A stretch of 64,000 bases of DNA from Myxococcales bacterium (GTDB taxonomy: Bacteria > Desulfobacterota > Binatia > HRBIN30). Below the pieces are notes generated by a model. It had not been told where the DNA came from. It saw only the letters and a program-made list of their open reading frames with translations, and ran no database searches. This document shows positions 5,500-58,889 of this stretch, piece after piece. Where the stretch lies: contig JBBILD010000005.1 in the NCBI GenBank assembly GCA_037445065.1, positions 96,001-160,000 on the forward strand, read 5' to 3'. The translations under genes and the position numbers were made by a program. Each line of letters opens with the position of its first letter. Position 1 is the first letter of the stretch.

Positions 5500-6778
5500 C
5501 CGCCGGCTTATACGAACTCGTCAAGTGGGTATCAACACCTAAAACCGTGCCTCCCCGGCCGTTGCACGCAAGCTCGGCAATTTGCACGCCTTTCTCCCGT
5601 CCACCCAGCACGGTTCGGAACCACGCTTCCAGCTCGGCTCCCGCCTCCTCCACAGAGGGCAGCCGCGCCGCAAAAAGGCACGCCGCGGCAACCAAGCGTT
5701 GGCGAAAGGCGCTGTCTGCGCAAGCGTTCACGAGGATCCGCGCTAAGGATTGCGCATCCCCATCTCTAAATACAGCTGCCGGCTCTGGCCAATCCAAAGC
5801 GGCGGCAACACTAGCCCCTAATACAGTGGGTTTGCCGAGAACCGTGTAGTTCACGAGCTTCACGGGGAAACCTGACCATGAACTGCGCGGACAAACCAGC
5901 ACGTCCGCACGGCGCAATGTCGCCATCACTTCCTGCCCTCCCGCCGCCCAAACCACCCGGGCTCGGCCGTCGCGGATCAGTGCTGCAAGAGCCTGAGGCA
6001 AGCGCCGATTCCAGGCTGCTTCATGAGTAACCAAAAGTAACGTGAGCGTGAGGGGCCCGTTCGCCGTACACTCGATCGCCTGGGCCAACACATCGAGGTC
6101 CTGGTACGCATCTAAATTGCCTGCATATGCAACCAAGTAACGCCTGCGGAAGCTTACCAGCCTCTCCGTGCCGCTCTCACGCGCAGCATCTCGCGGCGGG
6201 GGGCACAGCAACACAGGGAGGCGCTCGATCCCACAACTCCTCAGTTCTTCGAGTTGGGCTCGGCTGAGCACAATCACTGCGTCCGCTCGACTCGGAATTT
6301 CCCGGTCCAGCCAAGCCCCGAAGGCTCCCATCGTGCGACAGACCCATCCGGCACGGAAATACGCCGGCAACTCGTCGCGCAAAAGGTTGTGCGCGTGGTA
6401 GACCACCGGTATCCGCCTCGGATAGCGCGCTAGCCAAGCGATCAGCGGCCCTTCGTAATTATGCGCGTGAATCAGATCGAAACGATGCCGGCGCAACAAA
6501 GTGCGCAAGCGCACGCAAACGGCAAGATCCATCAGACCCTTCCACACAATCCAAGGCAAAACATGCCTCGCCCACAGCAACGACCTTCCCGCCTGGTGCA
6601 CGCGCACGTTTTCCCTCTGCAAGACTCGGCGTCCTCGTGCGCTGTAACAGACCACGTGGACCTCGCATCCTCGTCGCGCCAGAGCCTCGGCCAATTGACG
6701 GATCAACACTTGGGAGCCCCGCGGCGCCAGAAAAGGGCCGGGCGCCACCACGGCGATCCGCATGCCGCCCGCGCGCAT
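5468..6778 (-). CDS. Glycosyltransferase family 4 (GT-B)
   Basis: 'DLIHAHNYEG', 'VYHAHN', 'YAGNLDAYQD', 'GFPVKLVNY'; start placed at 6778 (or 6763) after AGGAG rather than ORF-track 6898. Confidence 0.85.
   Translation of the reverse strand: MRAGGMRIAVVAPGPFLAPRGSQVLIRQLAEALARRGCEVHVVCYSARGRRVLQRENVRVHQAGRSLLWARHVLPWIVWKGLMDLAVCVRLRTLLRRHRFDLIHAHNYEGPLIAWLARYPRRIPVVYHAHNLLRDELPAYFRAGWVCRTMGAFGAWLDREIPSRADAVIVLSRAQLEELRSCGIERLPVLLCPPPRDAARESGTERLVSFRRRYLVAYAGNLDAYQDLDVLAQAIECTANGPLTLTLLLVTHEAAWNRRLPQALAALIRDGRARVVWAAGGQEVMATLRRADVLVCPRSSWSGFPVKLVNYTVLGKPTVLGASVAAALDWPEPAAVFRDGDAQSLARILVNACADSAFRQRLVAAACLFAARLPSVEEAGAELEAWFRTVLGGREKGVQIAELACNGRGGTVLGVDTHLTSSYKPADADREGETRA
5507..5535 (-). promoter_or_regulatory. 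Putative sigma-70 promoter for wza, inside the 3' end of the GT4 gene
   Basis: Minus strand TTGATA-N17-TATAAG just upstream of the wza start. Confidence 0.45.
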
Positions 6779-6791
6779 TCGCTCCTGGTCC

Positions 6792-8456
6792 TCAGTCGAG
6801 GTATCCGAGATTGCGCAAACGTTGCTCGAGCTCAGCCTCCTCCAAAGCCGAATACGGGTGCAAAACGTTTTGCGAAAATTGTTCCTGAGGCACAACACAG
6901 CGGCTGGTGCTTACAACGCTGCACAACGTTTCTCCATCGAAAAGTTGTGCCACCGATGTGCCACAAAGGGAGAGAATGGTCGGTGCCATTTGCACCATAT
7001 CCGCCGTAATCACTTCTCCCGTGCGTTCGACCTGTGGACCGGCAAGCGCGAAGATCCCTTCACGACGATGGGTTCCGCTCAGGCCGCCGAGCTTGCCCCC
7101 TTGCCAGCGTGCTCGGTCAAGCTCACTCCAGAGCGGCCCGCGTACGCCGCCACTCGAAGCCAGACTGTAAGAATACCCTCCTGTGGTCTCTGCCAACTCG
7201 ATCAGGAGATCGGGAGCCAGTTCGAGGCAAGGCCCTTCGTACAGCTCCTCCCGGCGCCACACACGCGCAACTGCTGGCGTTTCTCCGCCAGGTGCCGGCA
7301 GCCTCAAGATTGCCTCCGCTACCTCATCACGCACCCGTTCGTAGTCACGCGGCGCCACTCGGCCCGCAGGATCTCTTCCAGCGAGGTTGACCCACAATGA
7401 CGGGCACGTACTCGACTCTTCCGAGAAAACCCAGGTGTTCTTGAAATCGATGCCAGAAAAGCGGCTCCTCGTCTCCAGCTCATTGGCAACTGCGTTCTGC
7501 CTCCAGCGGAAGAAAGGGGCCTGCCACCGCGGAGGAACCCACCTGAGAGCCCAGCGTTTCACTGGTGTGAGATCGAGCACTCGCCGCGCCGGGAGGAAGC
7601 GGAGCCATCCCTGTTCAGCAAGCCAGCGATTCGCGTGAAAAAGCCACCCGCTCGCTCCACCGAAACCATGGTCCGAAAGTAGCAACACATCGGCATCCGG
7701 CACCTCTCTCCACAGCGCCGCCAAGGCCAGATCGAGCCGCTCGAACACCTCCAACAGAACTGATCCGAACTCCGACGCCCCCTCCGGGTCGTACAAGGGA
7801 CTCTGCGGATCGAAGAAGTGCCAATAGTGGTGCGAGGCCGTATCCGATTCGCCGAACAACAGGAAGAAGCAGTCCCACCGCTCCCGTCGCAATAAGACCT
7901 GCGCGAGCCGGAGCTTTCGTTCAATACCTTGCAAAAGTTTCCGCCGCGCCATGCGGTACCACTCGCGGTTGACGACGAACTCTTGAAATTCCGCGAACGG
8001 AAACCCGCCAAGATCGCGAATCAGCGGGGCGGCCGAAGGCGGGTAGACGAAGGAATCATCAGTCTTCGTGGTTACCGGGGTATCAAAACCGCTCACCAAA
8101 ATCCCGTTCACTGGTTCCGGAGGGTAAGTGGCGGGAAGGCCCACAACGCAGATCCGTCGCCCCAACTCGCTCAAAATCTTCCACACGGTGGGGGCTTGCC
8201 GATAGGTGGCGTTCACAAAGCGAACCCGATAGGTCCCAGGCTCTCGCCGAGTAAAATCGAAGATCCCGTGGCGACCGGGATTGACGCCGGTCATGAAGGT
8301 CGTCCAACTCGGAAAGGTCACCGGCGGCCACGGGGCCCGCAACGGCCCGCTCAAACCCAAGCGGCGCAGGCGAGCCAAGGCCGGCAACCGACCTTGCTGC
8401 AACCAAGGTTCAAGGACGTTCCAGGACGCCCCGTCCCAACCAACCACCAACAGCAT
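6792..8456 (-). CDS. Alkaline phosphatase superfamily, type I phosphodiesterase/NPP-like protein
   Basis: 'VVGWDGA', 'PPVTFPSWTTFMTGVNPGRHGIFDF', 'LSDHGFG', 'GTHRREG'. Confidence 0.85.
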   Translation of the reverse strand: MLLVVGWDGASWNVLEPWLQQGRLPALARLRRLGLSGPLRAPWPPVTFPSWTTFMTGVNPGRHGIFDFTRREPGTYRVRFVNATYRQAPTVWKILSELGRRICVVGLPATYPPEPVNGILVSGFDTPVTTKTDDSFVYPPSAAPLIRDLGGFPFAEFQEFVVNREWYRMARRKLLQGIERKLRLAQVLLRRERWDCFFLLFGESDTASHHYWHFFDPQSPLYDPEGASEFGSVLLEVFERLDLALAALWREVPDADVLLLSDHGFGGASGWLFHANRWLAEQGWLRFLPARRVLDLTPVKRWALRWVPPRWQAPFFRWRQNAVANELETRSRFSGIDFKNTWVFSEESSTCPSLWVNLAGRDPAGRVAPRDYERVRDEVAEAILRLPAPGGETPAVARVWRREELYEGPCLELAPDLLIELAETTGGYSYSLASSGGVRGPLWSELDRARWQGGKLGGLSGTHRREGIFALAGPQVERTGEVITADMVQMAPTILSLCGTSVAQLFDGETLCSVVSTSRCVVPQEQFSQNVLHPYSALEEAELEQRLRNLGYLD

Positions 8457-20036: not shown

Positions 20037-20068
20037 CCTCTGGCCTCGCTGTGGTACCAAATGCGACC

Positions 20069-21280
20069 ATGCAATTGGGCCCGGCACACGCGACGGCTGA
20101 GTCTGTCCTCTCCCGGCTGCCTCGTTCGGCGCGCAGAATGTTCGATCAGGCTCTCGAGGGGCGAGCCCTCGGTCGCGCAGAGGCATTGGAGCTGATCCAT
20201 GATCCGAGTCCAGTGACGTACGAGGCACTGCTGGCGGTGGCCGGTACGGTACGCACCCGCGAGAAAGGAACGACAGTCACGTATTCACCCAAGGTCTTTC
20301 TTCCTGTGACCAATCTCTGCCTAGACCGCTGCTCCTACTGCACCTTTCGAGCTGACCCGGATGACCCACACGCATGGACCATGTTGCCAGAAGAAGTACG
20401 CGCAGTCTGCCGCTCCGGCCGTGCCCTCGGCTGCACCGAAGCCCTGCTCTGCCTAGGCGATCGGCCGGAACGTGTCTTTGCGAGCTACCGCTCTACACTC
20501 GAACTGCTCGGGGCGAAGAGTACGCCGGACTACCTCGTCCGAGTCAGTGAGTGGGCACTGGCAGAGGGGCTTCTCCCCCACACCAACGCCGGCTTGCTGA
20601 CCCGCGAAGAGATGGTCGCGCTTCGCCCGACCAACGTTAGCATGGGCTTGATGTTGGAGAACGTTTCTCCCCGTTTGCGCAGGAAGGGGCAAGCACACTG
20701 GCACGCCCCCGATAAAGATCCTGCCAAGCGGCTGCAAATGATCCGGATCGCTGGGGAACTGCGGATTCCCTTCACCAGTGGGATCTTGCTTGGCATCGGA
20801 GAGACGCGCACGGAAATCGTTGACAGCATTTTAGCCCTGGTCCATGTGCATCGAGAATTCGGCCATATCCAGGAGATCATCATTCAAAACTTCCGCGCGA
20901 AACCGAGCACCCGTATGGCCGCCTTCCCAGAACCAACGACCATGGAGATTGCTCAGACGTTGGCCGTAAGCCGCCTCCTTGCCCCTGACATGAACCTCCA
21001 AGCACCACCCAATTTGAACCCATACGATCACCGCGTGCTGTTGCGCGCAGGGTTGAACGACTGGGGCGGAATCTCTCCGCTCACTCCAGATTTCGTCAAT
21101 CCCGAGGCACCTTGGCCGCATGTGAAGGCATTGGCGGACCTTTGCTGGGAAGAAGGTTTCACCTTGCGCGCGCGCCTGCCAATCTACGACGAGTACATGG
21201 ATCGAGACGAATTCGTGGACCCAGCCTTGCGCGCGATCTTGCGCGCCAGACAGGAGCATCAAGGAGAGGCACGATGCTGA
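20069..21280 (+). CDS. cofG: FO synthase subunit CofG (radical SAM)
   Basis: 'VTYSPKVFLPVTNLCLDRCSYC', 'LPHTNAG', 'QAPPNL', 'NDWGGISP'. Confidence 0.93.
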   Translation: MQLGPAHATAESVLSRLPRSARRMFDQALEGRALGRAEALELIHDPSPVTYEALLAVAGTVRTREKGTTVTYSPKVFLPVTNLCLDRCSYCTFRADPDDPHAWTMLPEEVRAVCRSGRALGCTEALLCLGDRPERVFASYRSTLELLGAKSTPDYLVRVSEWALAEGLLPHTNAGLLTREEMVALRPTNVSMGLMLENVSPRLRRKGQAHWHAPDKDPAKRLQMIRIAGELRIPFTSGILLGIGETRTEIVDSILALVHVHREFGHIQEIIIQNFRAKPSTRMAAFPEPTTMEIAQTLAVSRLLAPDMNLQAPPNLNPYDHRVLLRAGLNDWGGISPLTPDFVNPEAPWPHVKALADLCWEEGFTLRARLPIYDEYMDRDEFVDPALRAILRARQEHQGEARC

Positions 21281-22518
21281 TTGCAGAGTTACGCCGTTTC
21301 CTTACCGAACCGCCTTCGCTCGCTGAGTCGTTGCAGCGAGCACAGCCCGGAGTTCGGGCTGTGCTGGAGCACGCCCTGGAGGACAAGGAGCTTTCCTTCG
21401 AACAAGGGATGACCTTGCTCGGGAGCGGCGGTCCTGATCTCGCCGCGCTCTTGCACGCTGCCGATGAACTGCGCCGGCGCGACGTCGGCGAGGTGGTCAC
21501 CTACGTGGTCAATCGGAACATCAACTTCACCAACGTCTGCTTCGTGGGCTGCCAGTTTTGCGCGTTCGCCCGGCACCGCAAAGACCCCGACGCGCGGACG
21601 GACAGCATCGAGCAGGTGCTCGCCAAGGTGGAGGAAGCGGTACAGGAGGGTGCAACCGAGATTTGCATGCAGGGTGGCATCAATCCTGAGATGGACGCCT
21701 TTGCGTACCGGGACTTGCTTCTCGCAATCAAACGCCACTTCCCCCAGATCCACATCCACGCCTTCTCTCCAATGGAGATCTTTTACGGGGCGCGCCGCAC
21801 GGGGATGAATTACCACGACTACCTGAGCATGCTGCGAGACGCCGGACTGGGAACAATTCCCGGCACGGCAGCAGAAATCCTCGATGACGAGGTACGCGAG
21901 GTCCTCAGCCACAAAAAAGTGGACGTACGGAGCTGGGTGGAAATCGTCACCACCGCGCACCGGGTCGGTCTTCGCAGCTCTTCGACCATGATGTACGGGC
22001 ACATTGAAAAGCCTCACCACATCATTCGCCACCTCGAACTTCTCCGCGCCCTCCAGAAAGACACCGGTGGCTTCACCGAATTCGTGCCCCTCCGCTTCAT
22101 CCATCCGTACACGGCACTGTACCAAAAGGGTCTCGTGAACCCGCCCCCCAAGGGAGCCCTAGATTTCAAGATTTACGCCGTGTCCCGCCTGATGCTGCGG
22201 CCGTACATCGTGAACATCCAAACATCGTGGGTAAAGCTCGGTACGGAACTGGCACAACTGTCGTTAGCAACTGGCTGCAATGACTTCGGTGGCACACTCA
22301 TGGAGGAACAGATCTCTAAGTCAGCGGGTGCCGACGCAGGTGAGTACCTGCCCGTTGCAACGATCCGCAGCTTGATCTTAGGCATGGGCCGCATCCCCAG
22401 GGAGCGAACGACTGTTTATGGAATCGTGGAGCGCGAATGTCCCGAGGCGCCGCTACGCGGTGCTCGCTGGCGGGGTGGGAGCGGCCCGCTTGCTGCGGGG
22501 GCTCTATGCGCTCGTTGA
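21274..22518 (+). CDS. cofH: FO synthase subunit CofH (radical SAM)
   Basis: 'VVNRNINFTNVCFVGCQFC', 'PGTAAEILDD', 'IQTSWVK', 'NDFGGTLMEE'; AAGGAG SD. Confidence 0.92.
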   Translation: MLIAELRRFLTEPPSLAESLQRAQPGVRAVLEHALEDKELSFEQGMTLLGSGGPDLAALLHAADELRRRDVGEVVTYVVNRNINFTNVCFVGCQFCAFARHRKDPDARTDSIEQVLAKVEEAVQEGATEICMQGGINPEMDAFAYRDLLLAIKRHFPQIHIHAFSPMEIFYGARRTGMNYHDYLSMLRDAGLGTIPGTAAEILDDEVREVLSHKKVDVRSWVEIVTTAHRVGLRSSSTMMYGHIEKPHHIIRHLELLRALQKDTGGFTEFVPLRFIHPYTALYQKGLVNPPPKGALDFKIYAVSRLMLRPYIVNIQTSWVKLGTELAQLSLATGCNDFGGTLMEEQISKSAGADAGEYLPVATIRSLILGMGRIPRERTTVYGIVERECPEAPLRGARWRGGSGPLAAGALCAR

Positions 22519-23380
22519 CCCCAACGCTCTTACGGTCATTGTCAACACCGCTGACGACGATGAGTTTTACGGCCTCCACGTGAGTCCCGACGTGGACACC
22601 GTGCTTTACTCGCTGGCAGGGCTCGCACCCGTCAAAAGGGGATGGGGGATTGCCCACGACAGTTTTCATTGCCTGAGCGCACTCGAGAAGTATTACGGGC
22701 CTGCCTGGTTCCAGCTTGGCGACCGGGATTTGGCGACGCACCTCTTCCGGACCGACGCCTTGCGCCGGGGACGTACGCTCACCGAGGTCACACATGCCCA
22801 AGCCCGAGCACTTGGCGTGCGTTGCCGCGTGCTCCCCATGAGCAACGAGCGGGTCCGCACCTTCGTGCGCACGCGTGAAGCAGGCTGGCTTCCTTTTCAG
22901 CGCTACCTCGTCCACCATTCCGCCACAGAAACGGTCGTCAACATCCGCTTTCGCGGGATCCGCCGCGCCCGCCCGACGCAAGCGGTCGTGCGCGCACTGC
23001 AAAATGCCGATTGGATTTTTCTGCCCCCGAGCAACCCGTTCGTGAGCCTCGGGCCGATTTTTGCCTTACCCGGGATCCGCGCACTTCTCGCCGGCAAGCG
23101 CAGGCGGGTGATCGCCGTGAGCCCGATCGTCGCGGGGGAACCAGTGAAGGGACCGCTGCATAAAATGCTCTCCGGCTTGGGTCACGAGGTCTCGGCTTAT
23201 GGGGCCGCGAAACTCTTACGGCCCGTGGCCCATTTCTTCGCCCTCGATCGGCGCGATGCTAGCGAGGCCCCCCGTATTGAACGTTTGGGCATGCAACCCA
23301 TCGTGACGGAAATCCTACTGCACTCTGCGGAACGGTCGCGCAACCTCGCCGCCACTTTGCTCGAGCTGACCCGTCCATGA
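22418..23380 (+). CDS. cofD: 2-phospho-L-lactate transferase CofD/FbiA
   Basis: 'LAGGVGAARLL', 'VNTADD', 'SPDVDT', 'WFQLGDRDLATH', 'PSNPFVS'. Confidence 0.93.
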   Translation: MESWSANVPRRRYAVLAGGVGAARLLRGLYALVDPNALTVIVNTADDDEFYGLHVSPDVDTVLYSLAGLAPVKRGWGIAHDSFHCLSALEKYYGPAWFQLGDRDLATHLFRTDALRRGRTLTEVTHAQARALGVRCRVLPMSNERVRTFVRTREAGWLPFQRYLVHHSATETVVNIRFRGIRRARPTQAVVRALQNADWIFLPPSNPFVSLGPIFALPGIRALLAGKRRRVIAVSPIVAGEPVKGPLHKMLSGLGHEVSAYGAAKLLRPVAHFFALDRRDASEAPRIERLGMQPIVTEILLHSAERSRNLAATLLELTRP

Positions 23381-24129
23381 GCTTGGTCCTGACACCCTTA
23401 GCTGGCCTTCCTTCGATCGAACGCGGGGCGCCGCTGGCCGCACTCCTCTGGGAGGCCCTCCAGCGCGCGGGTGTGGGCCTGGTCACCGGGGACATTGTCG
23501 TCGTTTGCCAGAAGGTGGTCTCCAAAGCCGAGGGACGCGTAGCGCAACTGGCCGGGGTCGAACCATCGGCCCTGGCCGTTCACTTCGCCGAGCAATGGCC
23601 TGGCAAAGATCCACGCCTCGTCGAACTTGTACTCCGCAACACCCGACGCGTGGTCCGGATGGATCGGGGTCACTTGATCGTAGAAACGGGCCCCGGGTGG
23701 GTTTGTGCCAACGCCGGCATTGACGAATCGAACGCGAACTGCCCGGGCGAGGTCGTGCTCTTACCAGAAGACCCAGATCGCTCTGCGGCCAGCTTACGCG
23801 AGTTTCTCGAGGCCCAAAGTCAGGCGCGGATCGCGGTGCTGGTTACGGATACTTGGGGCCGCCCGTGGCGCGAAGGAATCCTCGACTTCGCCATCGGCCT
23901 TTCCGGTATGGAGGCGCTGCTCGACTTGCGTGGCAGCAAGGACCTGCGAGGGCGCGAGCTCCAGCACACGATTTACGCTCAGGCGGACGCCTTGGCCGCC
24001 GCGGCCGGCCTTCTGATGCGGAAAGATAACGGCGTGCCGGCAGTCCATATCCGCGGGTACTCCTTCGCCCCGGCGTCTGGGTCGGCCCGCACCCTCATTC
24101 GCGACCCGCAGTCCGACCTGTTCCGTTAA
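23377..24129 (+). CDS. cofE: Coenzyme F420-0:L-glutamate ligase CofE
   Basis: 'QKVVSKAEGR', 'CANAGIDESN', 'LPEDPDRSA', 'TDTWGRPWR', C-terminal 'DLFR'; ATGA overlap with cofD. Confidence 0.93.
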   Translation: MSLVLTPLAGLPSIERGAPLAALLWEALQRAGVGLVTGDIVVVCQKVVSKAEGRVAQLAGVEPSALAVHFAEQWPGKDPRLVELVLRNTRRVVRMDRGHLIVETGPGWVCANAGIDESNANCPGEVVLLPEDPDRSAASLREFLEAQSQARIAVLVTDTWGRPWREGILDFAIGLSGMEALLDLRGSKDLRGRELQHTIYAQADALAAAAGLLMRKDNGVPAVHIRGYSFAPASGSARTLIRDPQSDLFR

Positions 24130-47930: not shown

Positions 47931-48395
47931 CGCCGAAAGAGTTTCTTTGATCGAGCGGTGCCAGTGAGGCAGGTGCGGGATCCTGCATCATTGGCCGCAC
48001 TTGCCTTGCGGCCCGCAGACATTCATCCGCGACCACGTCGCTTTCATCCACCGCGCCGCCGCAGCCTTTTCGACCTCGCTTGGGGCCCGCTGGTCGTCCC
48101 TCGCCGGGAGGCCACATTCGCGTAGGCTCGGTCACTAGCGGGCCTGATTGCAAGGTCCCGGAAGTCCACGCACAATCCGGCCGTCGTTCCGCTGACAGCA
48201 GGGGCACACTCCACTGCGCTGCCACGAGCAAGCGCTAACGCTTCGCTGCTTTCTCCGCCAGTCTTTGGGCGGTGCAGTTGCGCCGTGCCAGGAGGAGTCC
48301 TGGCAGGCGCGCGTTCCACCGCAAGATGTTCGACTGTTCTCCGCGTCCTCCGCGGAGAGCCAGCGCAACGGGAGCCGGCATAAAGGTGCGAGAGA

Positions 48396-48468
48396 AGGCG
48401 GCGAGCGGATTCGAACCGCTGCATCGAGGTTTTGCAGACCTCTCCCTTAGCCACTTGGGTACGCCGCC
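48396..48468 (-). tRNA. tRNA-Cys (GCA)
   Basis: GGCGGCG acceptor stem, anticodon arm GAGGT-CTGCAAA-ACCTC, GGTTCGAATCC T-arm, U discriminator; CCA not encoded. Confidence 0.97.
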
Positions 48469-48586
48469 TCGAGTCGCTGCCTCGCTTAGCAAGCTTGCCG
48501 GAGGGCTTCAATTCGGTTTTCGCGCGTTGACCCGCGCGCCGGCCAACAGTAAGAACGCTCCACTTTCGTGGAAGCCGAGACGCAAG

Positions 48587-49891: not shown

Positions 49892-49965
49892 GCGGGTGTA
49901 GCTCAGCTGGCTAGAGCGTATGCTTGCCAAGCATAAGGTCGCCGGTTCGACCCCGGTCACCCGCT
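49892..49965 (+). tRNA. tRNA-Gly (GCC)
   Basis: GCGGGTG/CACCCGC acceptor stem, TATGC-TTGCCAA-GCATA anticodon arm, GGTTCGACCC T-arm; CCA not encoded. Confidence 0.97.
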
Positions 49966-49972
49966 CTTTCCG

Positions 49973-50072: not shown

Positions 50073-50546
50073 ATGTACGTGGTCGAAGTACTGGAGCAGT
50101 GCGCGGCACTGGCGACTCGGGTGGCTCGTCTATACCGGCAACTGGCCGAGCGGTTTCCCCATGATCCCGCACGAGCGCAGTTGTGGCGCGAACTCGCCTT
50201 CTTGGAAGAAACCCATGCGGAAGTGTTGCAGCGCGAACTCCGCAGTTTCGAGGAGCGCGAGGAGACCGGCGACTTCGTTCCGGAAATGGCGGAGCGTCTT
50301 CGGCAAGCGGAGGCGACGCTGAGTGCGATCGAGGCACAGCTTGCCGCTTCCCAAGGACCGGACGCCGCAATCGAGGCGTCCGTAGCGCTCGAGCAGATGC
50401 ACCTGGAGGAACTGTACGATGACTTGGTCATCCAGGGTGAGCCGGCGTTCCGCTTGTTGATGGAACGCTTAGAAGGGGCGTTAGCCCGCAGGCCCGAAAT
50501 TCCTCCCACGCTGGTACGCAGGCAATGGCTGGGAAGACAACCCTGA
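50073..50546 (+). CDS. Ferritin-like/rubrerythrin-fold protein
   Basis: 'LYRQLAERF...LWRELAFLEETHAEVL'; GAGGAG SD. Confidence 0.65.
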   Translation: MYVVEVLEQCAALATRVARLYRQLAERFPHDPARAQLWRELAFLEETHAEVLQRELRSFEEREETGDFVPEMAERLRQAEATLSAIEAQLAASQGPDAAIEASVALEQMHLEELYDDLVIQGEPAFRLLMERLEGALARRPEIPPTLVRRQWLGRQP

Positions 50547-50632
50547 GCAGGCAAAATCGCAACCGAGCCGCAGCAAAAGCGGGTCCGCGGGCTTACGCCG
50601 AGTTCGAACCATTTCGGCCGAGGTGGCAGGCA

Positions 50633-51604
50633 ATGTTTCGCAGTTTGGGATTCGAGAGCCGGCGCGGCGCGCGCCGAACCGCCGTATTTGCCCCGCTGCT
50701 GTTGGGAGTGCTTGCGCTGAGTGCCTGTGCCGCGAAAAAGCCAAAGAGTGCAGAGGAGTATTTCCGCGCCGCGAGCGCGAGTTTTCGCAGTGGCGCCTTG
50801 GGTGTAGCCAGCGAGCAGTTCCGCGAACTGCTCGACCAGCACCCGTTCAGCGAGTATGCCGAAGAGGCCGAGCTGCGTATTGCCCACGCCCATTACTTGG
50901 AGGGTCGCTACGCGGAAGCTGTGGTGGCGCTCACCGATTTCCAACGGCGCCACCCAACCAGCCCCCACTTGCCCCTGGTGGGGTACTTGCTCGGCATGTG
51001 CTACGCGCGGCAAATGTTGCCGATTGACCGCGACCAAACCGCGGCCCAGAACGCTCTCACCTACTTTCTGACCGTCGCTCGCCAGTATCCGGAGAGCCCG
51101 TACGCAGAACTGGCGCGCGAGGAACTCGAGCGTTGCCGCCGGCGCTTGGCCGGTCATGAAGCCTATGTGGCTGAGTTCTACGCCAAGCGTGGGCACTGGA
51201 AAGCGGCGGAGGTGCGGCTGCTGGAACTCGCGGCAAAGTACGGTTCCACCGAGGAAGGAACCCGAGGACTCCTCTCGCTTGCCCGCCACTATGAAAAGCA
51301 AGGCATGACCGACCGAGCCCGGCTCGCATACCAGGCCGTAGCGCAGGCACGACCGGGCAGCGCCGACGCCGTGGTGGCGCAGCGAGCACTCCAGCGCCTG
51401 CGCGTGGAAGAGCCAATTCGTGCGGCTGACCCCATTACGGTGCTGCTCGCGTTGAACGGTCGCTCTCAAGTGGTCGATTCCTTCGACACCGCCCAGGTGA
51501 CACCTCCGCAGCCGGCCCGCTTGCCCTCCAGTGCCGGGGCGATGCCGGTCCCGGCCGTTGGCACCGGGTTCGATCCGTTTGGTCGTGGCCGTTCCTACTA
51601 CTAA
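50633..51604 (+). CDS. bamD: Outer membrane protein assembly factor BamD
   Basis: LSAC lipobox, TPRs, 'HPFSEYA', 'DRDQT', 'YPESPYA', 'LAGHEAYVAEFY'. Confidence 0.88.
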   Translation: MFRSLGFESRRGARRTAVFAPLLLGVLALSACAAKKPKSAEEYFRAASASFRSGALGVASEQFRELLDQHPFSEYAEEAELRIAHAHYLEGRYAEAVVALTDFQRRHPTSPHLPLVGYLLGMCYARQMLPIDRDQTAAQNALTYFLTVARQYPESPYAELAREELERCRRRLAGHEAYVAEFYAKRGHWKAAEVRLLELAAKYGSTEEGTRGLLSLARHYEKQGMTDRARLAYQAVAQARPGSADAVVAQRALQRLRVEEPIRAADPITVLLALNGRSQVVDSFDTAQVTPPQPARLPSSAGAMPVPAVGTGFDPFGRGRSYY

Positions 51605-52361
51605 CCTCGGAGCATCTTCCTCCGCGCACGAGGCTTGGCGGCACGGTCGGGTGTTGATCGCCGGCGTGGGCGGTTTGGGCTGCCCGGCTGCCCTCCTCAT
51701 CGCCCAGGCGGGGGTCGGCAACCTCACGATCGTGGATCCCGACAGGGTCGAAGTTTCCAACCTTCACCGCCAGCCTCTGTTCGATGAACTTGACCTCGGC
51801 CAGCCCAAGGCGCTGGTCGCTGCGCAACGCTTACAGGAGCGGTTCCCAGCGCTGGCCATCAAAGGCCTTGTCGCCGCCGTAGAAGAGGAGAACATCGAGC
51901 CGCTGCTAACCGGGCACGACCTGCTGGTAGACGCCACAGACCGAATCGAAACCAAGCTTTGGCTGAACGATCAGTGCGTGCGACTCGGCATCCCGCTCGT
52001 CCATGCGGGAGCACTCGGCTGGCAGGGGCAGCTCTGCACCGTTTTACCCGGGCGCAGTGCGTGCTTACGCTGCATCTTTGCAGCGGCGGACGATGAGTCG
52101 CTGCGCTCCTCCTGCCGAGAAGCAGGGATCGTGGGTCCTGTGGTCGGCTATCTCGGCGCGCGGCAAGCCTTCGAGGCACTGGCGCTCCTGGCCGGAGAGT
52201 GGGGCCAACTCACGGCCGACCGCATGTTGCTGTTCGACGCCTGGCGTCCGAGCCTTCGCGTGGTACGCGTGAAACGCGACCCGAACTGCGCGGTGTGCGC
52301 TGGTGTTTTGCCAGCACGAAGCGACCACACTCGTAAGAACACCCGCGCTTGCAGCGCATAG
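51585..52361 (+). CDS. ThiF/MoeB/HesA-family adenylyltransferase (E1-like), no rhodanese domain
   Basis: GVGGLG, 'DPDRVEVSNLHRQ', 'DATD', CLRC, 'CREAGIVGP', CAVC; start estimated. Confidence 0.9.
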   Translation: MAVPTTNLGASSSAHEAWRHGRVLIAGVGGLGCPAALLIAQAGVGNLTIVDPDRVEVSNLHRQPLFDELDLGQPKALVAAQRLQERFPALAIKGLVAAVEEENIEPLLTGHDLLVDATDRIETKLWLNDQCVRLGIPLVHAGALGWQGQLCTVLPGRSACLRCIFAAADDESLRSSCREAGIVGPVVGYLGARQAFEALALLAGEWGQLTADRMLLFDAWRPSLRVVRVKRDPNCAVCAGVLPARSDHTRKNTRACSA

Positions 52362-52448
52362 GGGAAGCTTTTACCAGTGGGTCTCACCGAAACGATTCCA
52401 AGTGTCTGCCCGAGCAGGCAGCGTTTGGCGTGAAAAAGGAGGTTCCAC

Positions 52449-52736
52449 ATGGGTGTTCGAGTTCGCATTCCAACGCCGCTCCGCCGGTACACCGATGGGA
52501 AAGAGGAGGTCGTCGCTTCGGGAGCCACCGTGGGGTCGGTGCTCGAAGATCTCGAGCAACACCATCCGGGCATCAAGGAACGGTTGTGCGATGAATCCGG
52601 GAAGGTCCGGAGATTCGTGAACATCTACGTGAATGGCGACGACATTCGCTTCCTCGATTCTCTGGACACCCCGGTGCGGGAGGGAGACGAGATTTCCATC
52701 GTGCCGGCGATTGCCGGCGGAGTTTTGAATGCCTGA
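52449..52736 (+). CDS. MoaD/ThiS/CysO-type ubiquitin-like sulfur carrier with C-terminal extension
   Basis: '[10 protein letters not shown]', '[16 protein letters not shown]', '[12 protein letters not shown]'; AAAAGGAGG SD. Confidence 0.93.
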
Positions 52737-53727
52737 GGCTGCGACCATCCGGTTGCGCCACACCCTGCGCCCGCGCAAAGCGAACTCGGTTCTCGATCTG
52801 GTCGGCAACACGCCTCTGCTCGAGCTCCGCAACCTGCGTGAAGGTGTGGCACCGGGGGTCCAAATCTACGCCAAGCTCGAGGGGTTCAACCCGGGCGGGT
52901 CCGTCAAGGATCGGCCGGCGGTATGGATGATCCGCGACGGCTTGCAGACTGGGAAACTGCGGCCGGGCAAGACGATCATCGACTCGACCTCTGGCAACAC
53001 AGGAATTGCTCTTGCGATGGCTGGGGCAGTCCTCGGCTATCCGGTCGAACTCGTCATGCCCGCCAATGTCAGCAAAGAACGCAAGCAAATTGTCTCGGCA
53101 TACGGGGCTAAAGTGATCTTCAGCGATCCTCTCGAGGGCTCCGATGGAGCCATCCGCCTGTGCCGCAAGATTCTCGCGGAAAACCCGGACAAGTACTTCA
53201 AACCCGATCAGTACTTCAACGAAGTGAACCCGCTGGCGCATTTCGAAAGCACCGGTCCGGAGATCTGGAACGACACCCGCGGTCGGGTCACCCATCTGGT
53301 CGCCGGCATCGGCACGGGTGGGACGATCATGGGCACCGGCCGTTATCTAAGAAGCCGCAACCCGGCCATTCAGGTGATTGCCGTGGAGCCTGATGACGCG
53401 TGGCACGGGCTGGAAGGACTCAAGCACATGGCGACCTCCATCGTACCGGGCATCTATCACGAGGAGGAACTGGACCGAAAAATTCCGGTGAGCACCGACG
53501 CCGCTTATGAAATGGTGTACCAAATCGCCGAACGCGAAGGCATTGTTGTCGGTCAGTCCTCCGGGGCAGCACTGGTGGGCGCGTTGGAGGTTGCGCGCGA
53601 ACTCCGCGAGGGGGTCGTGGTGGTCATCTTCCCGGACTTTGGCGACCGGTACCTGAGCACGAATCTCTGGGTTGGCTGGCGGGAGCGGCGTGCTCGCCTG
53701 GAGCGCATCCTGGCACAAAGTCTCTGA
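52729..53727 (+). CDS. cysM: PLP-dependent cysteine synthase (CysM type)
   Basis: 'VGNTPL', 'NPGGSVKDR', 'STSGNTG', 'GIGTGGT', 'PDFGDRYLS'. Confidence 0.88.
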
Positions 53728-53733
53728 TCGCCC

Positions 53734-54402
53734 ATGCATCTCAACGAACAGGAGTTGGAGTGGTTCAGCCGCCAAATCCTGGCCAGCGGCGTCGGCGGGC
53801 GCGGGCAAGGAGCCTGGTTCGAGAGCGCTGTGGCCCTGGTGGGAAAGCCGGACTTGCTCGGACCGTGTGCTTTGTACCTAGCGCGCGCTGGGGTCGGTCA
53901 CATCGCAGTGCCGGCAGCGTTGCTCCCACAGTTGCCTCGCGGTGCCTGCCCGCGCACTTCCTGGTACGGCGAAGCTTTTCCAAGCGGTTTCTCCCGAGCC
54001 ACCGGTGTTTCCATCCACGCTTGCGAGGAGCCTGGCGCCTGGCACGCGCAAGTTCGCAAATGGCGCCCACAGCGTGCTGCGGTTTGGGTGTGGGTGCAAG
54101 GAACGCGCGCGTGGGTGGCGTACTGGCCGCAACCGTTTCAAAGTGCTTGCCCGCTCGATGACGAATTCTGGCAGTTGTGGTCCGAGCCCGGCAACGCCGC
54201 ATCGCACCAGAGTGCCGAGCCGGTCTACGGCTGGGGTGCGGCAACGTTGGCTGCCAGTCTAGCCTTGCGCGCTCTTTTAGAGCCGCGCGCGCAACAGGAG
54301 CACGCATGGTTTCTGCAGGACTTTGGGCGGGGCCTTGTCCGCCAGCAGGTCCGGCAAGCGTTCTCCACTCCCTGCGAGCATTGCCGAGGGCACTTGGTAT
54401 GA
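53734..54402 (+). CDS. Catalytically degenerate ThiF/MoeB-like protein
   Basis: N-terminus 'LNEQELEWFSRQILASGVGGRGQ' and 'YLARAGVGHI' match MoeB; GxGxxG and SNLxRQ absent; C-terminal CEHC. Confidence 0.75.
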   Translation: MHLNEQELEWFSRQILASGVGGRGQGAWFESAVALVGKPDLLGPCALYLARAGVGHIAVPAALLPQLPRGACPRTSWYGEAFPSGFSRATGVSIHACEEPGAWHAQVRKWRPQRAAVWVWVQGTRAWVAYWPQPFQSACPLDDEFWQLWSEPGNAASHQSAEPVYGWGAATLAASLALRALLEPRAQQEHAWFLQDFGRGLVRQQVRQAFSTPCEHCRGHLV

Positions 54403-55676
54403 AGCTGGCACCCGCAAGCAGCGCCGGCAGCCGCCTCGCCGGCGAGCCCTGGCTCGCACACAAACTCTTGTGCAAAGGCGTGCAGGTCGGCGCCGCGCGA
54501 GAGGATGAACTCAGGCATACCGCGCATTGGCTCGCAGGCGCGTTCGGTTCGCCGCGACTCGAGATCGAGCTTCTCACACCCTCTCCGGCACGCCTACTGG
54601 TGGCCGTGCACACGGGCGAAAGCGACGGAGATCTGCCCCGACTCGAGCGAAGCGATGGGAGGTGGCAGCTCAGCACCGCGGGCGGGCCCATACCGGTGCG
54701 CATCCCTAGCCCCCCCGCCTGGTACGAGATCGAAGCTTCTACCGGACGCAAGATGGGGGAGATCGCGTGGCTGCTCGGTTCGGTTTTGATTTTCTTCCCG
54801 ACAACCAGTTGCGGGTATGGCCTGAGTGGTGCGAGCTGCCGCTTCTGTCGTGCCGGCTCTCGGTCCTTCGATGAGCGGGAGATGACGCTCGGTGCGAGCG
54901 AAGTGGCGCAAGTGGTGAGCGCGGCAAGCCGGGAGCGGCGCCTGCGCTACGTGTATTTCCCCGCCCAGCCATCCTTCGACTTAGAAGACGGCGGCGTCTG
55001 CGAGTTAGAGCCGCTGGTGAGGGCTGCCCGGAGGCACACCTCCGCACTGATCGCCGCGTCGTTCCATCCCCCGCGCACTCTCCGCTGGCTCGATCATGCT
55101 TACGCAATGGGAGTGGATGCTGCAGGGATTCACCTCGAGGTCATTGACGTCGAGACGCTCTCCCGTGCCTTGCCGGGACGGGCCCGGCACCTGGGCAAGT
55201 CGCGGTATTTTGCAGCGTTGCACCACGCCGCCCGCATCTTTCCTGCAGGCGCCATTTGGAGCGAGGTGGTGCTCGGCTGGGAGCCAGGGAGCGCACTGAG
55301 AGGTGATCTGCGGACTCTCGTAGAGGTAGGGGTCATTCCGGTTCTCATCCCCTTACGAAGCGAGGACCGGCCTTCGTCCTTCCCCGTCTCGCCGCCCGAC
55401 GCAGAAGAGCTTCGGCACGCCTGCCTCACCGTGGAGGCGGCGCTTCGCGGCAAACGTCTGTGCCCGCAGTGGATTCCTCCCCTCCCCTACGCCCTACCGA
55501 GGCTGCTGGACGATTGCCTTGAGCAAGAAGCAGTTCAGGCTCGCCTGTGGGCCGGCGTGAGCCGAGCGCAGCTGCTGGGTAACCTGGCTTTGCCACGCCT
55601 CGCCCGTTTGCGGCGGGCATTGCGCGTTCGCAGCCTGGACGACTCCACGGGCGAGGCGCCCCATGCAAGCCGGTAA
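54399..55676 (+). CDS. Radical SAM protein with atypical Cx8Cx2C motif (MSMEG_0568-like)
   Basis: 'CGYGLSGASCRFC' at 54810-54848; 'GVDAAGIHLEV', 'PGRA', 'GVIPVLIPLR'; ATGA overlap with the preceding gene. Confidence 0.75.
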   Translation: MKLAPASSAGSRLAGEPWLAHKLLCKGVQVGAAREDELRHTAHWLAGAFGSPRLEIELLTPSPARLLVAVHTGESDGDLPRLERSDGRWQLSTAGGPIPVRIPSPPAWYEIEASTGRKMGEIAWLLGSVLIFFPTTSCGYGLSGASCRFCRAGSRSFDEREMTLGASEVAQVVSAASRERRLRYVYFPAQPSFDLEDGGVCELEPLVRAARRHTSALIAASFHPPRTLRWLDHAYAMGVDAAGIHLEVIDVETLSRALPGRARHLGKSRYFAALHHAARIFPAGAIWSEVVLGWEPGSALRGDLRTLVEVGVIPVLIPLRSEDRPSSFPVSPPDAEELRHACLTVEAALRGKRLCPQWIPPLPYALPRLLDDCLEQEAVQARLWAGVSRAQLLGNLALPRLARLRRALRVRSLDDSTGEAPHASR

Positions 55677-57153
55677 CATGGATATCGCCAGCCCAGCCAG
55701 CTCCGCTCGCAAACCGCGGTACGTCGTGGACACCCGGCCCCTTTGGCGCATCCTCCTGCCAGGGGTCTTTCACGCGCTCTTGTGGTGTCTCGCCGCGGGG
55801 ATGTACTGGTGGGCAATCAGCACTCCGCCCCCGGCGGGGCTCAGCGAAGCGGGGCAGCGCGCGCTGGCGATTTTCGCCATTTGTGTGCTCTTCTGGGTGC
55901 TCAGCGTTCTACCGCTGATGGTCACCAGCTTGCTTGCCATCGTGCTGATCCCGCTTTCCGGGGTCATGAGCGCATCGCAAGCCTATTCGCTGTTCGGCAA
56001 CGAAGCCCTGTTTTTTATCCTCGGTGCTTTCATTTTGGCCGCCTGCCTGATGAAGTCGGGTCTCAGCACGCGCATCGCGCTGGCGATCTTGCATCGTTTC
56101 GGGCGGACTCCGCACTCACTCCTGTTCAGCGTACTACTGCTCAACGTCGTCATGGCCTTCTTCATGTCCGAGCATGCGGTAGCCGCGATGAACTTCCCCA
56201 TCATCGCCGAGATGACCCAAGTGTTGCGACTCACGCCGCGGCGCAGCAACTATGGCAAGGCGCTCTTTCTCGCGATGGCGTGGGGCTCGACCATTGGCGG
56301 CATCGCCACCTTGCTCGGGGGGGCACGCGCCCCGCTCGCGATCGGCATCTTACGCGAGACAACCGGCAAGTCGTTCACCTTCTTCGAGTGGAGCCAGGCA
56401 ATCTTTCCGCTCGTCGTTGTCCTCACCGGGGTGGCTTACGTGCTGCTCCGCTGGTTCTTCCCCGTTGACATTAACGACGTCCGTGCCGCCGACGAAGTGC
56501 TGCGCGAGCGCCGCTTGCGCCTCGGCAAGCCTCGCTACCAAGAACGGGCGATCGCCACCGTGATGCTGGCCACCCTCGCAGCATGGATCTTGCTCGGCGA
56601 GGAGTTCGGCTTGGCTAACGTCGCCCTGGTTTCCGTCGTCGTTTTGTTCCTGTTACGACTGGTCCATTGGAAAGAAATCGAAGGTTATGTGAACTGGGGC
56701 GTGCTGGTGATGTACGGTGGGGCAATTTGTCTCGGCTCGGCGCTGAGCAAGTCCGGGGCGGCTGGCTGGCTCGCGCACGCCACCATCCGCGACTGGGCCA
56801 CGAACTCCAGTGCGGTCATCTGGTTGCTTTCCTTGCTCGCGCTGGTGCTCACCGAAGCCATGAGCAATTCCGCGGTCGTGGCCATGCTGCTCCCGATGAG
56901 CCTCGGGATTGCGGGCGAGTTCGGGCTCGACCCCCGCGTGATCGCGCTCACTGTGGCGGTACCTGCTGGCTTGGCGACCACCCTACCGATCGGTACACCT
57001 GCAAACGCGATCGCGTTCTCGAGCGGCTACCTGTCGCTGCGTGACTTACTCCTCCCGGGCGCCACGCTGGCCTTCATTGCCTGGGTCGCGTTCAACCTCA
57101 TGGCGTGGTGGTACTGGCCATGGCTCGGCTTGCACATCGGGGGTGGAGGATGA
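55663..57153 (+). CDS. SLC13/DASS family anion (sulfate/dicarboxylate) symporter
   Basis: Multi-TM; 'GGIATLLGGAR', 'VNWGVLVMYGG', 'EAMSNSA', 'LPIGTPANAI'. Confidence 0.9.
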   Translation: MQAGNMDIASPASSARKPRYVVDTRPLWRILLPGVFHALLWCLAAGMYWWAISTPPPAGLSEAGQRALAIFAICVLFWVLSVLPLMVTSLLAIVLIPLSGVMSASQAYSLFGNEALFFILGAFILAACLMKSGLSTRIALAILHRFGRTPHSLLFSVLLLNVVMAFFMSEHAVAAMNFPIIAEMTQVLRLTPRRSNYGKALFLAMAWGSTIGGIATLLGGARAPLAIGILRETTGKSFTFFEWSQAIFPLVVVLTGVAYVLLRWFFPVDINDVRAADEVLRERRLRLGKPRYQERAIATVMLATLAAWILLGEEFGLANVALVSVVVLFLLRLVHWKEIEGYVNWGVLVMYGGAICLGSALSKSGAAGWLAHATIRDWATNSSAVIWLLSLLALVLTEAMSNSAVVAMLLPMSLGIAGEFGLDPRVIALTVAVPAGLATTLPIGTPANAIAFSSGYLSLRDLLLPGATLAFIAWVAFNLMAWWYWPWLGLHIGGGG

Positions 57154-57614
57154 ATGCCGTACTGCTTCTACTGACGCCGGGGTCCCAACCCGGGCTTGCT
57201 CTGCAACGCGCCTTGGAGCGAGCCAAGGAGTCGCACGCAGTGCTTTACGCCGCCGTCGTGCTCCCAGCGCGACACTTAGATGAACTCGCCGGCCAACTCA
57301 TGGACCACGGCTTCATTGGCGAGAAGCTTAGTGAGGACGTGATCGAACACGTACGGCAGGAGCAAGTCGCTCTCGCGAACGAGGTTCTGGCAAGGGTACG
57401 GGAGGCGGCAGCACGAGCGGGCGTCGAAGTCGAAACGCAGGTGATCGAGGGCGAACCTTGGGAGGCTTGCGAAGCGGCTTCGACCCGCTTTTCCATCGCG
57501 CACGCAGTGCTGCCTGTGCCCGCCCGTGCGTGGTTCGAACGCTGGTGGCGCAAGCCCCGGGCCCCCGCCTGGGCGGAGGACCTGGGCTGTAACGTAGAAA
57601 CCGTGGAAGAGTAG
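57150..57614 (+). CDS. Universal stress protein (USP) domain protein
   Basis: 'ALQRALERAKE', 'AARAGVEVETQVIEGEP'; ATGA coupling to the transporter. Confidence 0.75.
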   Translation: MNAVLLLLTPGSQPGLALQRALERAKESHAVLYAAVVLPARHLDELAGQLMDHGFIGEKLSEDVIEHVRQEQVALANEVLARVREAAARAGVEVETQVIEGEPWEACEAASTRFSIAHAVLPVPARAWFERWWRKPRAPAWAEDLGCNVETVEE

Positions 57615-57629: not shown

Positions 57630-58889
57630 ATGGCCGATTTGGTTCCCGTGCACGGGGGTTTAGAATCGCCCGTCAACCGCGTCGTTCCTCTCGGACGCCG
57701 CAAGCAGTTTCTCGAGGAAGCCAAGGATTTCGCCCGCGTGGAAGTGAGCCGGGCCGATCTCTCCACCGTCTATCGCATCGCAGACGGAACCCTTTCGCCT
57801 CTGACCGGCCCGATGGACGAAGACACCTGGCACTACGTCCTCGACCACGATGCGCTGGATTTCGGCTTTCGCCATTATGCGTGGACGGCGCCCATTTCCT
57901 TCCCGGTCACTGACGACGAAGCGCGCCGGGTGCGCATCGGGAAGCCCGTGGCCCTCTTTCACGAAGGGCAGACTGTGGGAATGGTACGCGTGACCAGCCT
58001 TTTCGACTGGGATAAGCCAAAGCACATCGAACGCTTCTACGGAACGCGCCGGACCGATCACCCTGGTGCGCGCATGATTCTCGAAGATCCCCGTACCAAG
58101 CTGATCGGCGGCGAGCTTTGGGCTCTGCCGCAGGAGGTCGATCCGGAATACGGCGAGTTCGTTCTTTCGCCTCGCCAAGTGCGCACGCTGATTGCCGAGC
58201 GGCGTTGGGAACGGGCGCTCGCCTTCCAAACCCGCAACCCGTTGCACCGAGCACATGAGTACGCACTGGTGGCTGGCGTCGAGCGCCTGACCCGCGAGGG
58301 ATACTTTGCAGGTGTGGTCTTGAACCCGCTGGTCGGTGAACTGAAGGGAGACGACGTGCCGGCTCGCGCCCGCATGCGCTGCTACCGCGCCCTGCACGAC
58401 CTCAAGCTGCTCGGCAAAGGAGACAAGGACGAGGCTTTGTGGCGCGAGAAAGGCTACGACCTCACGGAGGTCTTCGAGCTCGTCGGCCTGGACATCAAGA
58501 TGCTTTACGGAGGCCCCAAGGAAGCGGTGATGCACGCGATCTACCGCCAAAACCTGGGGTTCACCGACATTGTCATTGGACGCAAGCATGCCGACGCCCC
58601 GTATGATGACGGCTCCCCGATCTGGGGCGATTTCGATGCGCAAGAGATTTTCCGCGAGCTCCGCGGGGACCTGCGCATCCAGCCTTGCAACATCGGTTTC
58701 GCGGCATACTTCGAAAGTGTCGGGCGCGTGGACCTCATCGAGAATCATCCCGGCGAGAAACCTGTATCCATTTCGGGCTCAAGCATCCGAGAAATGCTCA
58801 CCCGCGGGGAGCGTCCCGACGAGCGGATTCTCAGACCAGAGATCGCTGACATCCTGATCGCCTACTACCGGGAGAAAGCCTCTCGCTGA
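57630..58889 (+). CDS. sat: Sulfate adenylyltransferase (Sat-type ATP sulfurylase)
   Basis: 'VPVHGG', 'DHPG', 'AFQTRNPLHRAHEY', 'GGPKEAVMHAIYRQNLG', 'ISGSSIREML'. Confidence 0.93.
   Translation: MADLVPVHGGLESPVNRVVPLGRRKQFLEEAKDFARVEVSRADLSTVYRIADGTLSPLTGPMDEDTWHYVLDHDALDFGFRHYAWTAPISFPVTDDEARRVRIGKPVALFHEGQTVGMVRVTSLFDWDKPKHIERFYGTRRTDHPGARMILEDPRTKLIGGELWALPQEVDPEYGEFVLSPRQVRTLIAERRWERALAFQTRNPLHRAHEYALVAGVERLTREGYFAGVVLNPLVGELKGDDVPARARMRCYRALHDLKLLGKGDKDEALWREKGYDLTEVFELVGLDIKMLYGGPKEAVMHAIYRQNLGFTDIVIGRKHADAPYDDGSPIWGDFDAQEIFRELRGDLRIQPCNIGFAAYFESVGRVDLIENHPGEKPVSISGSSIREMLTRGERPDERILRPEIADILIAYYREKASR

Follow-up and report, generated by a model that had tools for sequence, protein, structure and literature searches.

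Complementary ThiF-family proteins flank a CysO-like carrier and cysteine synthase in a Binatia operon: a candidate asymmetric activating dimer

Why does an operon for sulfur assimilation encode two ThiF-fold proteins, each lacking the part of the active site that the other keeps? The question arises from a 64-kb stretch of the genome of a Myxococcales bacterium (GTDB Binatia; HRBIN30; assembly GCA_037445065.1, contig JBBILD010000005.1, positions 96,001-160,000, forward strand), referred to here as the window, in which the genes for ThiF-A (51585-52361) and ThiF-B (53734-54402) enclose those of a small sulfur carrier and a CysM-type cysteine synthase. In the homodimers MoeB and ThiF, each subunit bears both an ATP site and an arginine helix; here the two features are found on two gene products, with A possessing all ATP-binding and catalytic residues and no helix, and B possessing the helix and no ATP-binding segment. 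An earlier sequence-only reading of this DNA had described the pair as a split, ubiquitin-like activating enzyme (E1), an obligate heterodimer of one active and one inactive subunit acting on the carrier encoded between them, and its placement of the genes on the + strand proved correct. We consider it moderately probable that A and B form an asymmetric dimer of the ThiF/MoeB type, with one active site between them, and that this dimer activates the CysO-like carrier for making cysteine, because the complementary content of the two proteins, the conservation of both traits and the linkage of the genes all fit such an arrangement.

ThiF-A occupies a longest frame of 276 amino acids (aa; 51531-52361), of which a GTG start at 51585 gives 258 aa; the start is uncertain, with GTG codons at 51531, 51585 or 51651. 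The protein contains GVGGLG, SNLHRQ, DATD, CLRC, CAVC and the cysteine of SSC(177)REAG, so that both CxxC zinc pairs and the cysteine of the crossover loop are present, and that loop itself is short. Across an alignment of 30 ThiF-A sequences, G27/G29/G32, D51, N59-L60-x-R62-Q63, K75 and D116-x-T118-D119 were invariant, as were cysteines C160/C163, C177 and C235, which bears out the full adenylation site described by the sequence-only reading. An AlphaFold2 (AF2) model of A reached a pLDDT (predicted local distance difference test) of 88.4, with residues 1-8 at low confidence and the C-terminal tail also ill-defined.

What A lacks, even in its longest frame and as had been claimed, is the N-terminal helix. 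Residues 32-254 of the 276-aa frame cover positions 14-237 of the 238 in the Pfam ThiF profile, leaving unmatched the first 13, the site of the RYxRQ helix. Among solved structures, the alignment to E. coli MoeB (E = 2.5e-44) begins at residue 24 and that to ThiF at residue 29, and A is therefore without the segment that holds MoeB Arg14 or ThiF Arg11 (numbering from the accessible part of PMC13139853). No hidden helix was found in the three frames upstream of ThiF-A, and the motif [YFW]xRQ[ILVM]...GxxGQ occurred a single time in the six-frame translation of the 64 kb, inside B at 53764. Nor is RYSRQ kept by A's orthologues: the helix was missing from 30 of 30 aligned relatives, and among the 120 nearest homologues 114 had none, four had a genuine helix and two matched the pattern loosely within a short N-terminus (in these nearest homologues a median of 19 residues precedes the glycine loop).

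We placed 119 usable homologues, six A proteins (from the window and the loci described below) and ten canonical ThiFs in a FastTree tree of 135 rows. Helix-less forms made up one group of 121 rows, with Shimodaira-Hasegawa-like support of 94, nested among helix-bearing forms; two rows were misplaced, P0124 (one of a helix-bearing pair) and L046 (a long-branch canonical enzyme). The tree is a quick one with many open forks and supports no more than one large helix-less lineage. Judged from these alignments, the loss of the helix in A is old and common to its relatives, not private decay.

ThiF-B (222 aa) shows the reverse pattern. Its N-terminus reads ELEWFSRQIL..GGRGQ, and it retains the N-terminal RQ helix, the GGxGQ loop and the zinc-site cysteines; VGKPDLLG stands in place of GxGxxG, and about 15-26 residues of the ATP-binding segment Asp...SNLxRQ...Lys are deleted. 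The sequence-only reading, which had B keeping the helix and losing both GxGxxG and SNLxRQ, was accurate on these points. The Pfam ThiF match of B is limited to residues 11-59 (profile positions 1-49) and to 19.1 bits (cut-off 28.1). A B-family profile built from 19 B-type sequences aligned end to end with E. coli ThiF (1zfn, E = 3.7e-36; positions 4-218 on 4-248), with one gap of ~26 residues over DDDDVHLSNLQRQILFTTEDIDRPKSQV, where the ribose-binding Asp lies together with SNLQRQ and Lys. The AF2 model of B (pLDDT 84.4; predicted template-modelling score, pTM, 0.85) found its best Foldseek matches in E. coli ThiF 1zkm/1zud at template-modelling (TM) scores of 0.6-0.7, and its structural matches ran through ThiF, Uba4 and MoeB to SAE1, the inactive subunit of the SUMO E1. 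On this model the ThiF fold of B is predicted to be intact over its whole length, and its sequence marks it as a putative pseudo-enzyme, catalytically dead and unable to bind ATP.

The family to which B belongs became visible only with exhaustive phmmer, since a word-indexed search returned a single full-length relative at 93% identity. The phmmer search gave 137 hits. Of these, 62 were B-like, a class defined by presence of the helix, 150 aa or more beyond it and absence of NLxRQ; the remainder were canonical enzymes (29), fragments (18) and others (28). When the window B and the 62 B-like sequences were aligned with seven canonical enzymes, the canonical 23-residue segment was replaced by 12 residues or fewer in 61 of 63, the exceptions being P0156, which is nearly canonical, and P0170, with 13 residues. 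RQ was present in all 63, and the third glycine of the glycine loop was missing from every one except P0156. With P0156 left out, 62 B-like sequences showed 100% conservation of R13, Q14, G21, Q25 and G53 and 98% of G24 and G55; among the cysteines, C139 was conserved in 98%, C214 in 94%, C217 in 76% and the second Cys of pair 1 in 87%. The median identity to the window B stood at 44% in residues 1-60 and at 16% beyond them (62 members). By these percentages, B is best preserved where MoeB and ThiF carry the element that works on the site of the partner. Far from being absent or randomly decayed in relatives, B-type sequences share the invariant Arg13 and Gln14 and a common deletion of the ATP segment, and by this pattern they constitute a conserved pseudo-enzyme family of at least 62 clusters, not a case of private decay. 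Its named members come from Candidatus Binatia. In the ESM Atlas, a look-up of B that excluded PF00899 clusters scored 0.87-0.88 at best, under the 0.9 threshold for a lead, and was discarded.

The least degenerate B comes from a locus in another Binatia genome (L078). Compared along its full length with a canonical Syntrophobacter ThiF, it shows 37% identity (E = 7e-48) and a 17-residue gap at VVDISNLQRQVIHFTPDI; with the A encoded beside it, the identity is 31% (E = 1e-15). Since this B is closer to canonical ThiF than to A, B appears by sequence comparison to be a diverged whole paralogue with a deletion rather than half of a split gene, and the word "split" in the sequence-only reading was a misnomer. 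We also considered B as a recent duplicate of A, an origin that the same two identities rule out.

We scanned genomes with the B alignment, using the N-terminal helix as the pattern; the 80 loci listed, among which the window's own genome does not appear, are not a census, and 74 of them are ordinary helix-bearing ThiF/MoeB genes, which dominate because the helix served as the pattern. By hmmsearch with A-type and B-type profiles, at least six of the 80 listed encode a B-like protein: L001, L047, L060, L076 and L078, from Binatia metagenome-assembled genomes (MAGs), and L080, from a "delta proteobacterium" MAG. The reciprocal motif loss proposed by the sequence-only reading recurs there, with a helix-less A lying 1.3-2.9 kb upstream of B on the same strand in five of these six loci and a helix-bearing ThiF in none of them. 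Carrier and CysM genes come directly before B in all six, and between A and B in the five that have A. Three A/B cluster pairs also had longest contigs of equal length (P0011/P0001, 790939; P0012/P0131, 155091; P0013/P0268, 16182), and this exact agreement indicates that each pair lies on a common contig; contig matching yielded no new A partners for 20 further B clusters, most of whose contigs measure 1-6 kb.

Eight Nitrospirota loci with two ThiF genes ~2 kb apart (L014, L020, L024, L025, L026, L031, L049 and L063) were considered as A/B-type pairs and rejected, as both copies are canonical: each has the helix, the glycine loop and SNLxRQ, the helix motif being RYSRH in the upstream copy, where RYSRQ is usual.

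In the window, A and B belong to a compact series of + strand genes at ~50.5-58.9 kb, whose identities were assigned with Pfam and NCBIfam profiles:

50525-51604, +, BamD/YfiO-type outer-membrane lipoprotein (Pfam YfiO 5.5e-39; TIGR03302 196 bits, cut-off 81)
51585-52361, +, ThiF-A, putative active MoeB/ThiF-type adenylation subunit without the N-terminal arginine-finger helix (Pfam ThiF 1e-69)
52449-52736, +, ThiS/MoaD/SAMP1-like sulfur carrier, CysO-like (Pfam ThiS 8.2e-20; NF041918 SAMP1 69.5 bits, cut-off 60)
52729-53727, +, CysM-type pyridoxal-phosphate (PLP) cysteine synthase (Pfam PALP 3.4e-74; TIGR01138 cysM 384.2 bits, below the 394.2 cut-off)
53734-54402, +, ThiF-B, ThiF-fold protein with the N-terminal RQ helix, predicted to be catalytically dead (Pfam ThiF 7.5e-4, below cut-off)
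54399-55676, +, variant radical-SAM protein (NF045502 variant_rSAM 1.7e-27, 96 bits, cut-off 125)
55663-57153, +, DASS/SLC13 sodium:sulfate-type symporter (Pfam Na_sulph_symp 9.3e-65; TIGR00785 270.7 bits)
57105-57614, +, weak universal-stress-protein-like open reading frame (ORF) (Pfam Usp E = 0.0023, below cut-off)
57630-58889, +, sulfate adenylyltransferase, ATP sulfurylase (Pfam ATP-sulfurylase 1.9e-56, PUA_2 5.8e-29)

The genes are closely packed. The BamD stop overlaps the 5' end of the ThiF-A frame, and the cysM start overlaps the 3' end of the carrier gene by 8 nt. B starts 6 nt past the cysM stop, and its TGA stop overlaps the ATG of the radical-SAM gene (ATGA, read from the sequence), a tight packing that we count in favor of pairing. 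The radical-SAM protein itself has the cysteine spacing C-x9-C-x2-C.

Among the related loci the genes take two principal arrangements. In L001, L047 and L078 the order by Pfam is BamD-A-carrier-CysM-B, so that a BamD-type gene again stands upstream of A; the L047 contig stops soon after B, and in L001 and L078 B is followed by an ORF without a Pfam match, a DASS gene, a short ORF (Usp-like in L078, without a Pfam match in L001) and ATP sulfurylase. In L060 and L080 the order is A, a ThrC-like gene, carrier, CysM, a NIL-domain protein and B. L076 reads carrier-CysM-B-radical SAM-DASS-Usp, where the ORF after B (L076:5038-6267) has a weak Pfam Radical_SAM match of 6.8e-5. At the position matching the window's weak Usp-like ORF, the ORFs of L076 and L078 match Usp at 3e-6 to 7e-6.

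In the second arrangement (L060:5020-7921, L080:5125-7964), the gene inserted between A and the carrier encodes a threonine-synthase-like PLP enzyme that bears a zinc ribbon at its N-terminus, and the one inserted between CysM and B a small NIL-domain protein; this operon form suggests a possible additional role for the A/B pair in a different thiocarboxylate-dependent synthesis of an amino acid. In L080 the ThrC-like gene and cysM are each split into two overlapping ORFs (L080:5125-6418 and 6702-7731), which probably reflects frameshift errors of assembly rather than biology.

The operon is one for a sulfur carrier of the CysO/CysM type and not for conjugation: a ThiS/MoaD-type carrier with Gly-Gly adjoins a CysM-type synthase, as in CysO-CysM systems, and the window ORFs that were scanned contained neither an E2/UBC domain nor any other domain of conjugation. 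In the mechanism we propose, A would bind ATP and adenylate the C-terminal glycine of the carrier encoded between A and B. B would fill the place of the second subunit, with the helix at its N-terminus (whose Arg13 corresponds to MoeB Arg14 and ThiF Arg11) lying over A's nucleotide site in trans, a placement like that of the partner subunit in homodimeric MoeB/ThiF. The activated carrier would be thiocarboxylated and then used by CysM to make cysteine, and sulfur would be taken up and activated by way of the downstream DASS transporter and ATP sulfurylase. The pairing of A with B, the action of Arg13 in trans and the choice of carrier as substrate are all things that we infer from sequence-level facts.

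The window carrier ends in ...AIAGG followed by four extra residues, VLNA, a tail that results from the overlap of its 3' end with the cysM start. Its orthologues end in GG (L047, L076, L078), GGR (L060, L080) or GGRA (L001). Residues beyond the Gly-Gly would need trimming, and neither a JAB/JAMM nor a rhodanese domain was found among the window ORFs scanned; either could lie outside the 64 kb.

Among the closest known systems are E. coli MoeB-MoaD and ThiF-ThiS (1jw9, 1zud, 1zfn), which share with A the fold and active-site residues, match the B profile over its full length, and resemble this system in having zinc CxxC pairs and a small beta-grasp carrier with Gly-Gly. A second comparison is the mycobacterial CysO-CysM-Mec-MoeZ route, in which a ThiS-like carrier likewise stands beside a CysM-type synthase; unlike that route, the operon studied here has two ThiF paralogues and a radical-SAM gene after B, and the scanned ORFs include no rhodanese-fused E1 or JAB/JAMM protein. 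Operons combining a carrier, an E1, a JAB protein and a cysteine synthase are described in the accessible part of PMC1779556. A further paper, PMC13444090, deals in its accessible part with ThiF-ThiS complexes and is not relevant to a two-gene pair.

The division of labor that we propose has counterparts in eukaryotes. A and B are two paralogous adenylation domains with the ATP site on one and the arginine helix on the inactive one, the composition of an asymmetric E1. In the heterodimeric E1s for SUMO (SAE1/SAE2) and NEDD8 (APPBP1/UBA3), the inactive subunit supplies an arginine to the single active site. The same is stated in the accessible part of PMC10557695. The parallel drawn by the sequence-only reading stands as far as it concerns one active and one inactive paralogue with the arginine helix on the latter, SAE1 itself being among the matches of the B model. 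It fails beyond that point, and "ubiquitin-like activating" was an overstatement: the inserted catalytic-Cys domain and the ubiquitin-fold domain of the eukaryotic enzymes are both missing from this system, its locus includes no E2, its carrier feeds CysM rather than conjugation, and B is not an expanded subunit, being a protein of ~220 aa that carries a short deletion.

Two other systems show arginine donation by an inactive ThiF-family domain. BilD, of the BilABCD defence system, is described in the available portion of PMC10557695 as a bacterial E1 pseudo-dimer of inactive and active domains, with Arg9 coming from the inactive one; both domains lie on one polypeptide with a mobile Cys domain, and BilD works with an E2 in antiviral conjugation. 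Unlike BilD, A and B are encoded by two genes separated by the carrier and cysM, with no fusion found, in a sulfur-assimilation context. In yeast, according to the part of PMC13139853 accessible to us, the inactive Tcd1 gives Arg59 to Tcd2, itself fingerless, in a heterodimer of ThiF-family ct6A dehydratases that differs from A and B in being eukaryotic, membrane-anchored and active on tRNA.

Several observations weigh against the asymmetric dimer, and most of them would favor a different division of labor, in which A alone is a homodimer with no need of an arginine finger and B is a non-catalytic accessory of the same pathway, for instance one that holds the carrier or presents it, a scaffold for CysM or for the radical-SAM protein, or a relay or regulator based on zinc or cysteine. 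The accessible part of PMC13139853 reports that the arginine fingers ThiF Arg11 and MoeB Arg14 are non-essential and that E. coli TcdA has none, and A could for that reason be a self-sufficient homodimer. Helix-less A-type enzymes are numerous, as the 114 of 120 nearest homologues show, and B is documented for a minority of them: linkage is documented only for rows in two branches of the helix-less group, neither of them among the two largest, which are of the P0016/P0031 and P0042/P0120 types (P0120 is a Corallococcus protein). On the 9.3-kb contig of one locus, L076, B is present without A. The C-terminal half of the fold is retained in B, as are both CxxC pairs in most members, and the conserved helix could serve a structural role within B itself. 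B also diverges faster than A (38-40% against 63-67% identity between the window and the P0012/P0131 contig), and a search for fused A-B or B-A forms in the "longer" length class found none in 4454 candidates, which is weak evidence. An accessory role for B nevertheless leaves unexplained why the sole near-invariant block of the protein is the trans-acting helix with its GGxGQ loop, and why B stands beside a ThiF lacking exactly that block in five of the six listed loci and never beside a helix-bearing one; on balance we judge the accessory role unlikely, if the most serious of the alternatives.

That B is a decaying, functionless duplicate, a pseudogene-like remnant of a ThiF, we regard as very improbable. 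Its Pfam score below threshold, its one close relative in the word-indexed search and its quick divergence might be taken that way, but an open frame of ~200-240 aa persists in 62 divergent clusters, with several invariant residues and a confidently predicted fold; position and strand are kept in the six listed loci, across at least two lineages, and the overlap with the next gene is of the kind typical of translational coupling. Least credible of all is that A only seems to lack the helix, through a wrongly chosen start, a frameshift or a fault of assembly, as the three possible GTG codons might allow: the motif is encoded in no upstream frame, the BamD gene takes up the space there, the motif occurs once in the window, in B, and the same short N-terminus recurs in independent assemblies.

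If A and B do form the asymmetric dimer, how far each depends on the other is a further question. The sequence-only reading called the pair obligate, a term made doubtful by the non-essential fingers of ThiF and MoeB and the fingerless TcdA reported in the accessible part of PMC13139853. That source also gives the loss on R59A mutation of Tcd1 as only ~26% of activity, a figure that calls for caution in describing A:B as obligate. The stronger version of the proposal, that bacteria, mainly Binatia, independently evolved a widespread, obligate two-gene E1 of eukaryote style that activates a CysO-like carrier, and in which a pseudo-ThiF survives only as arginine-helix donor and dimer partner, is accordingly one we put forward tentatively, as a possibility somewhat short of even. 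Were it true, the architecture would be widespread and unrecognised, spanning at least 62 B clusters and more than 100 A clusters, and would offer a living example of the step of duplication and reciprocal loss that is assumed for the origin of heterodimeric E1s.

Should the pairing alone be true, E1s built from an active and an inactive subunit would have more than one origin, in this case within plain sulfur metabolism, and two proteins of 258 and 222 aa would make a small, tractable system for separating the contributions of the arginine finger and of the second subunit. Many database entries named "molybdopterin/thiamine biosynthesis adenylyltransferase" would then be non-catalytic subunits, and a Binatia-type CysO/CysM operon would be defined, with no rhodanese among the window ORFs scanned and with a conserved variant radical-SAM gene. 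The literature we searched holds no bacterial pair of separately encoded ThiFs with reciprocal loss; the 2009 article "Natural history of the E1-like superfamily", reportedly by Burroughs, Iyer and Aravind, lay outside that search and may mention inactive paralogues.

Elsewhere in the window, a tRNA-Cys(GCA) at 48394-48469 (-) and a tRNA-Gly(GCC) at 49892-49966 (+) lie just upstream of the BamD/ThiF-A row, and the long ORFs listed over both tRNA sites are artefacts of high G+C content. A row of F420 biosynthesis genes at 20051-24129 comprises two radical-SAM genes, one of which carries a CofH/MqnC C-terminal region, together with CofD and F420-0:gamma-glutamyl ligase. The gene order around the operon, with peroxiredoxin, PKD-domain proteins and BamD, agrees with that of the Binatia MAG locus L001.

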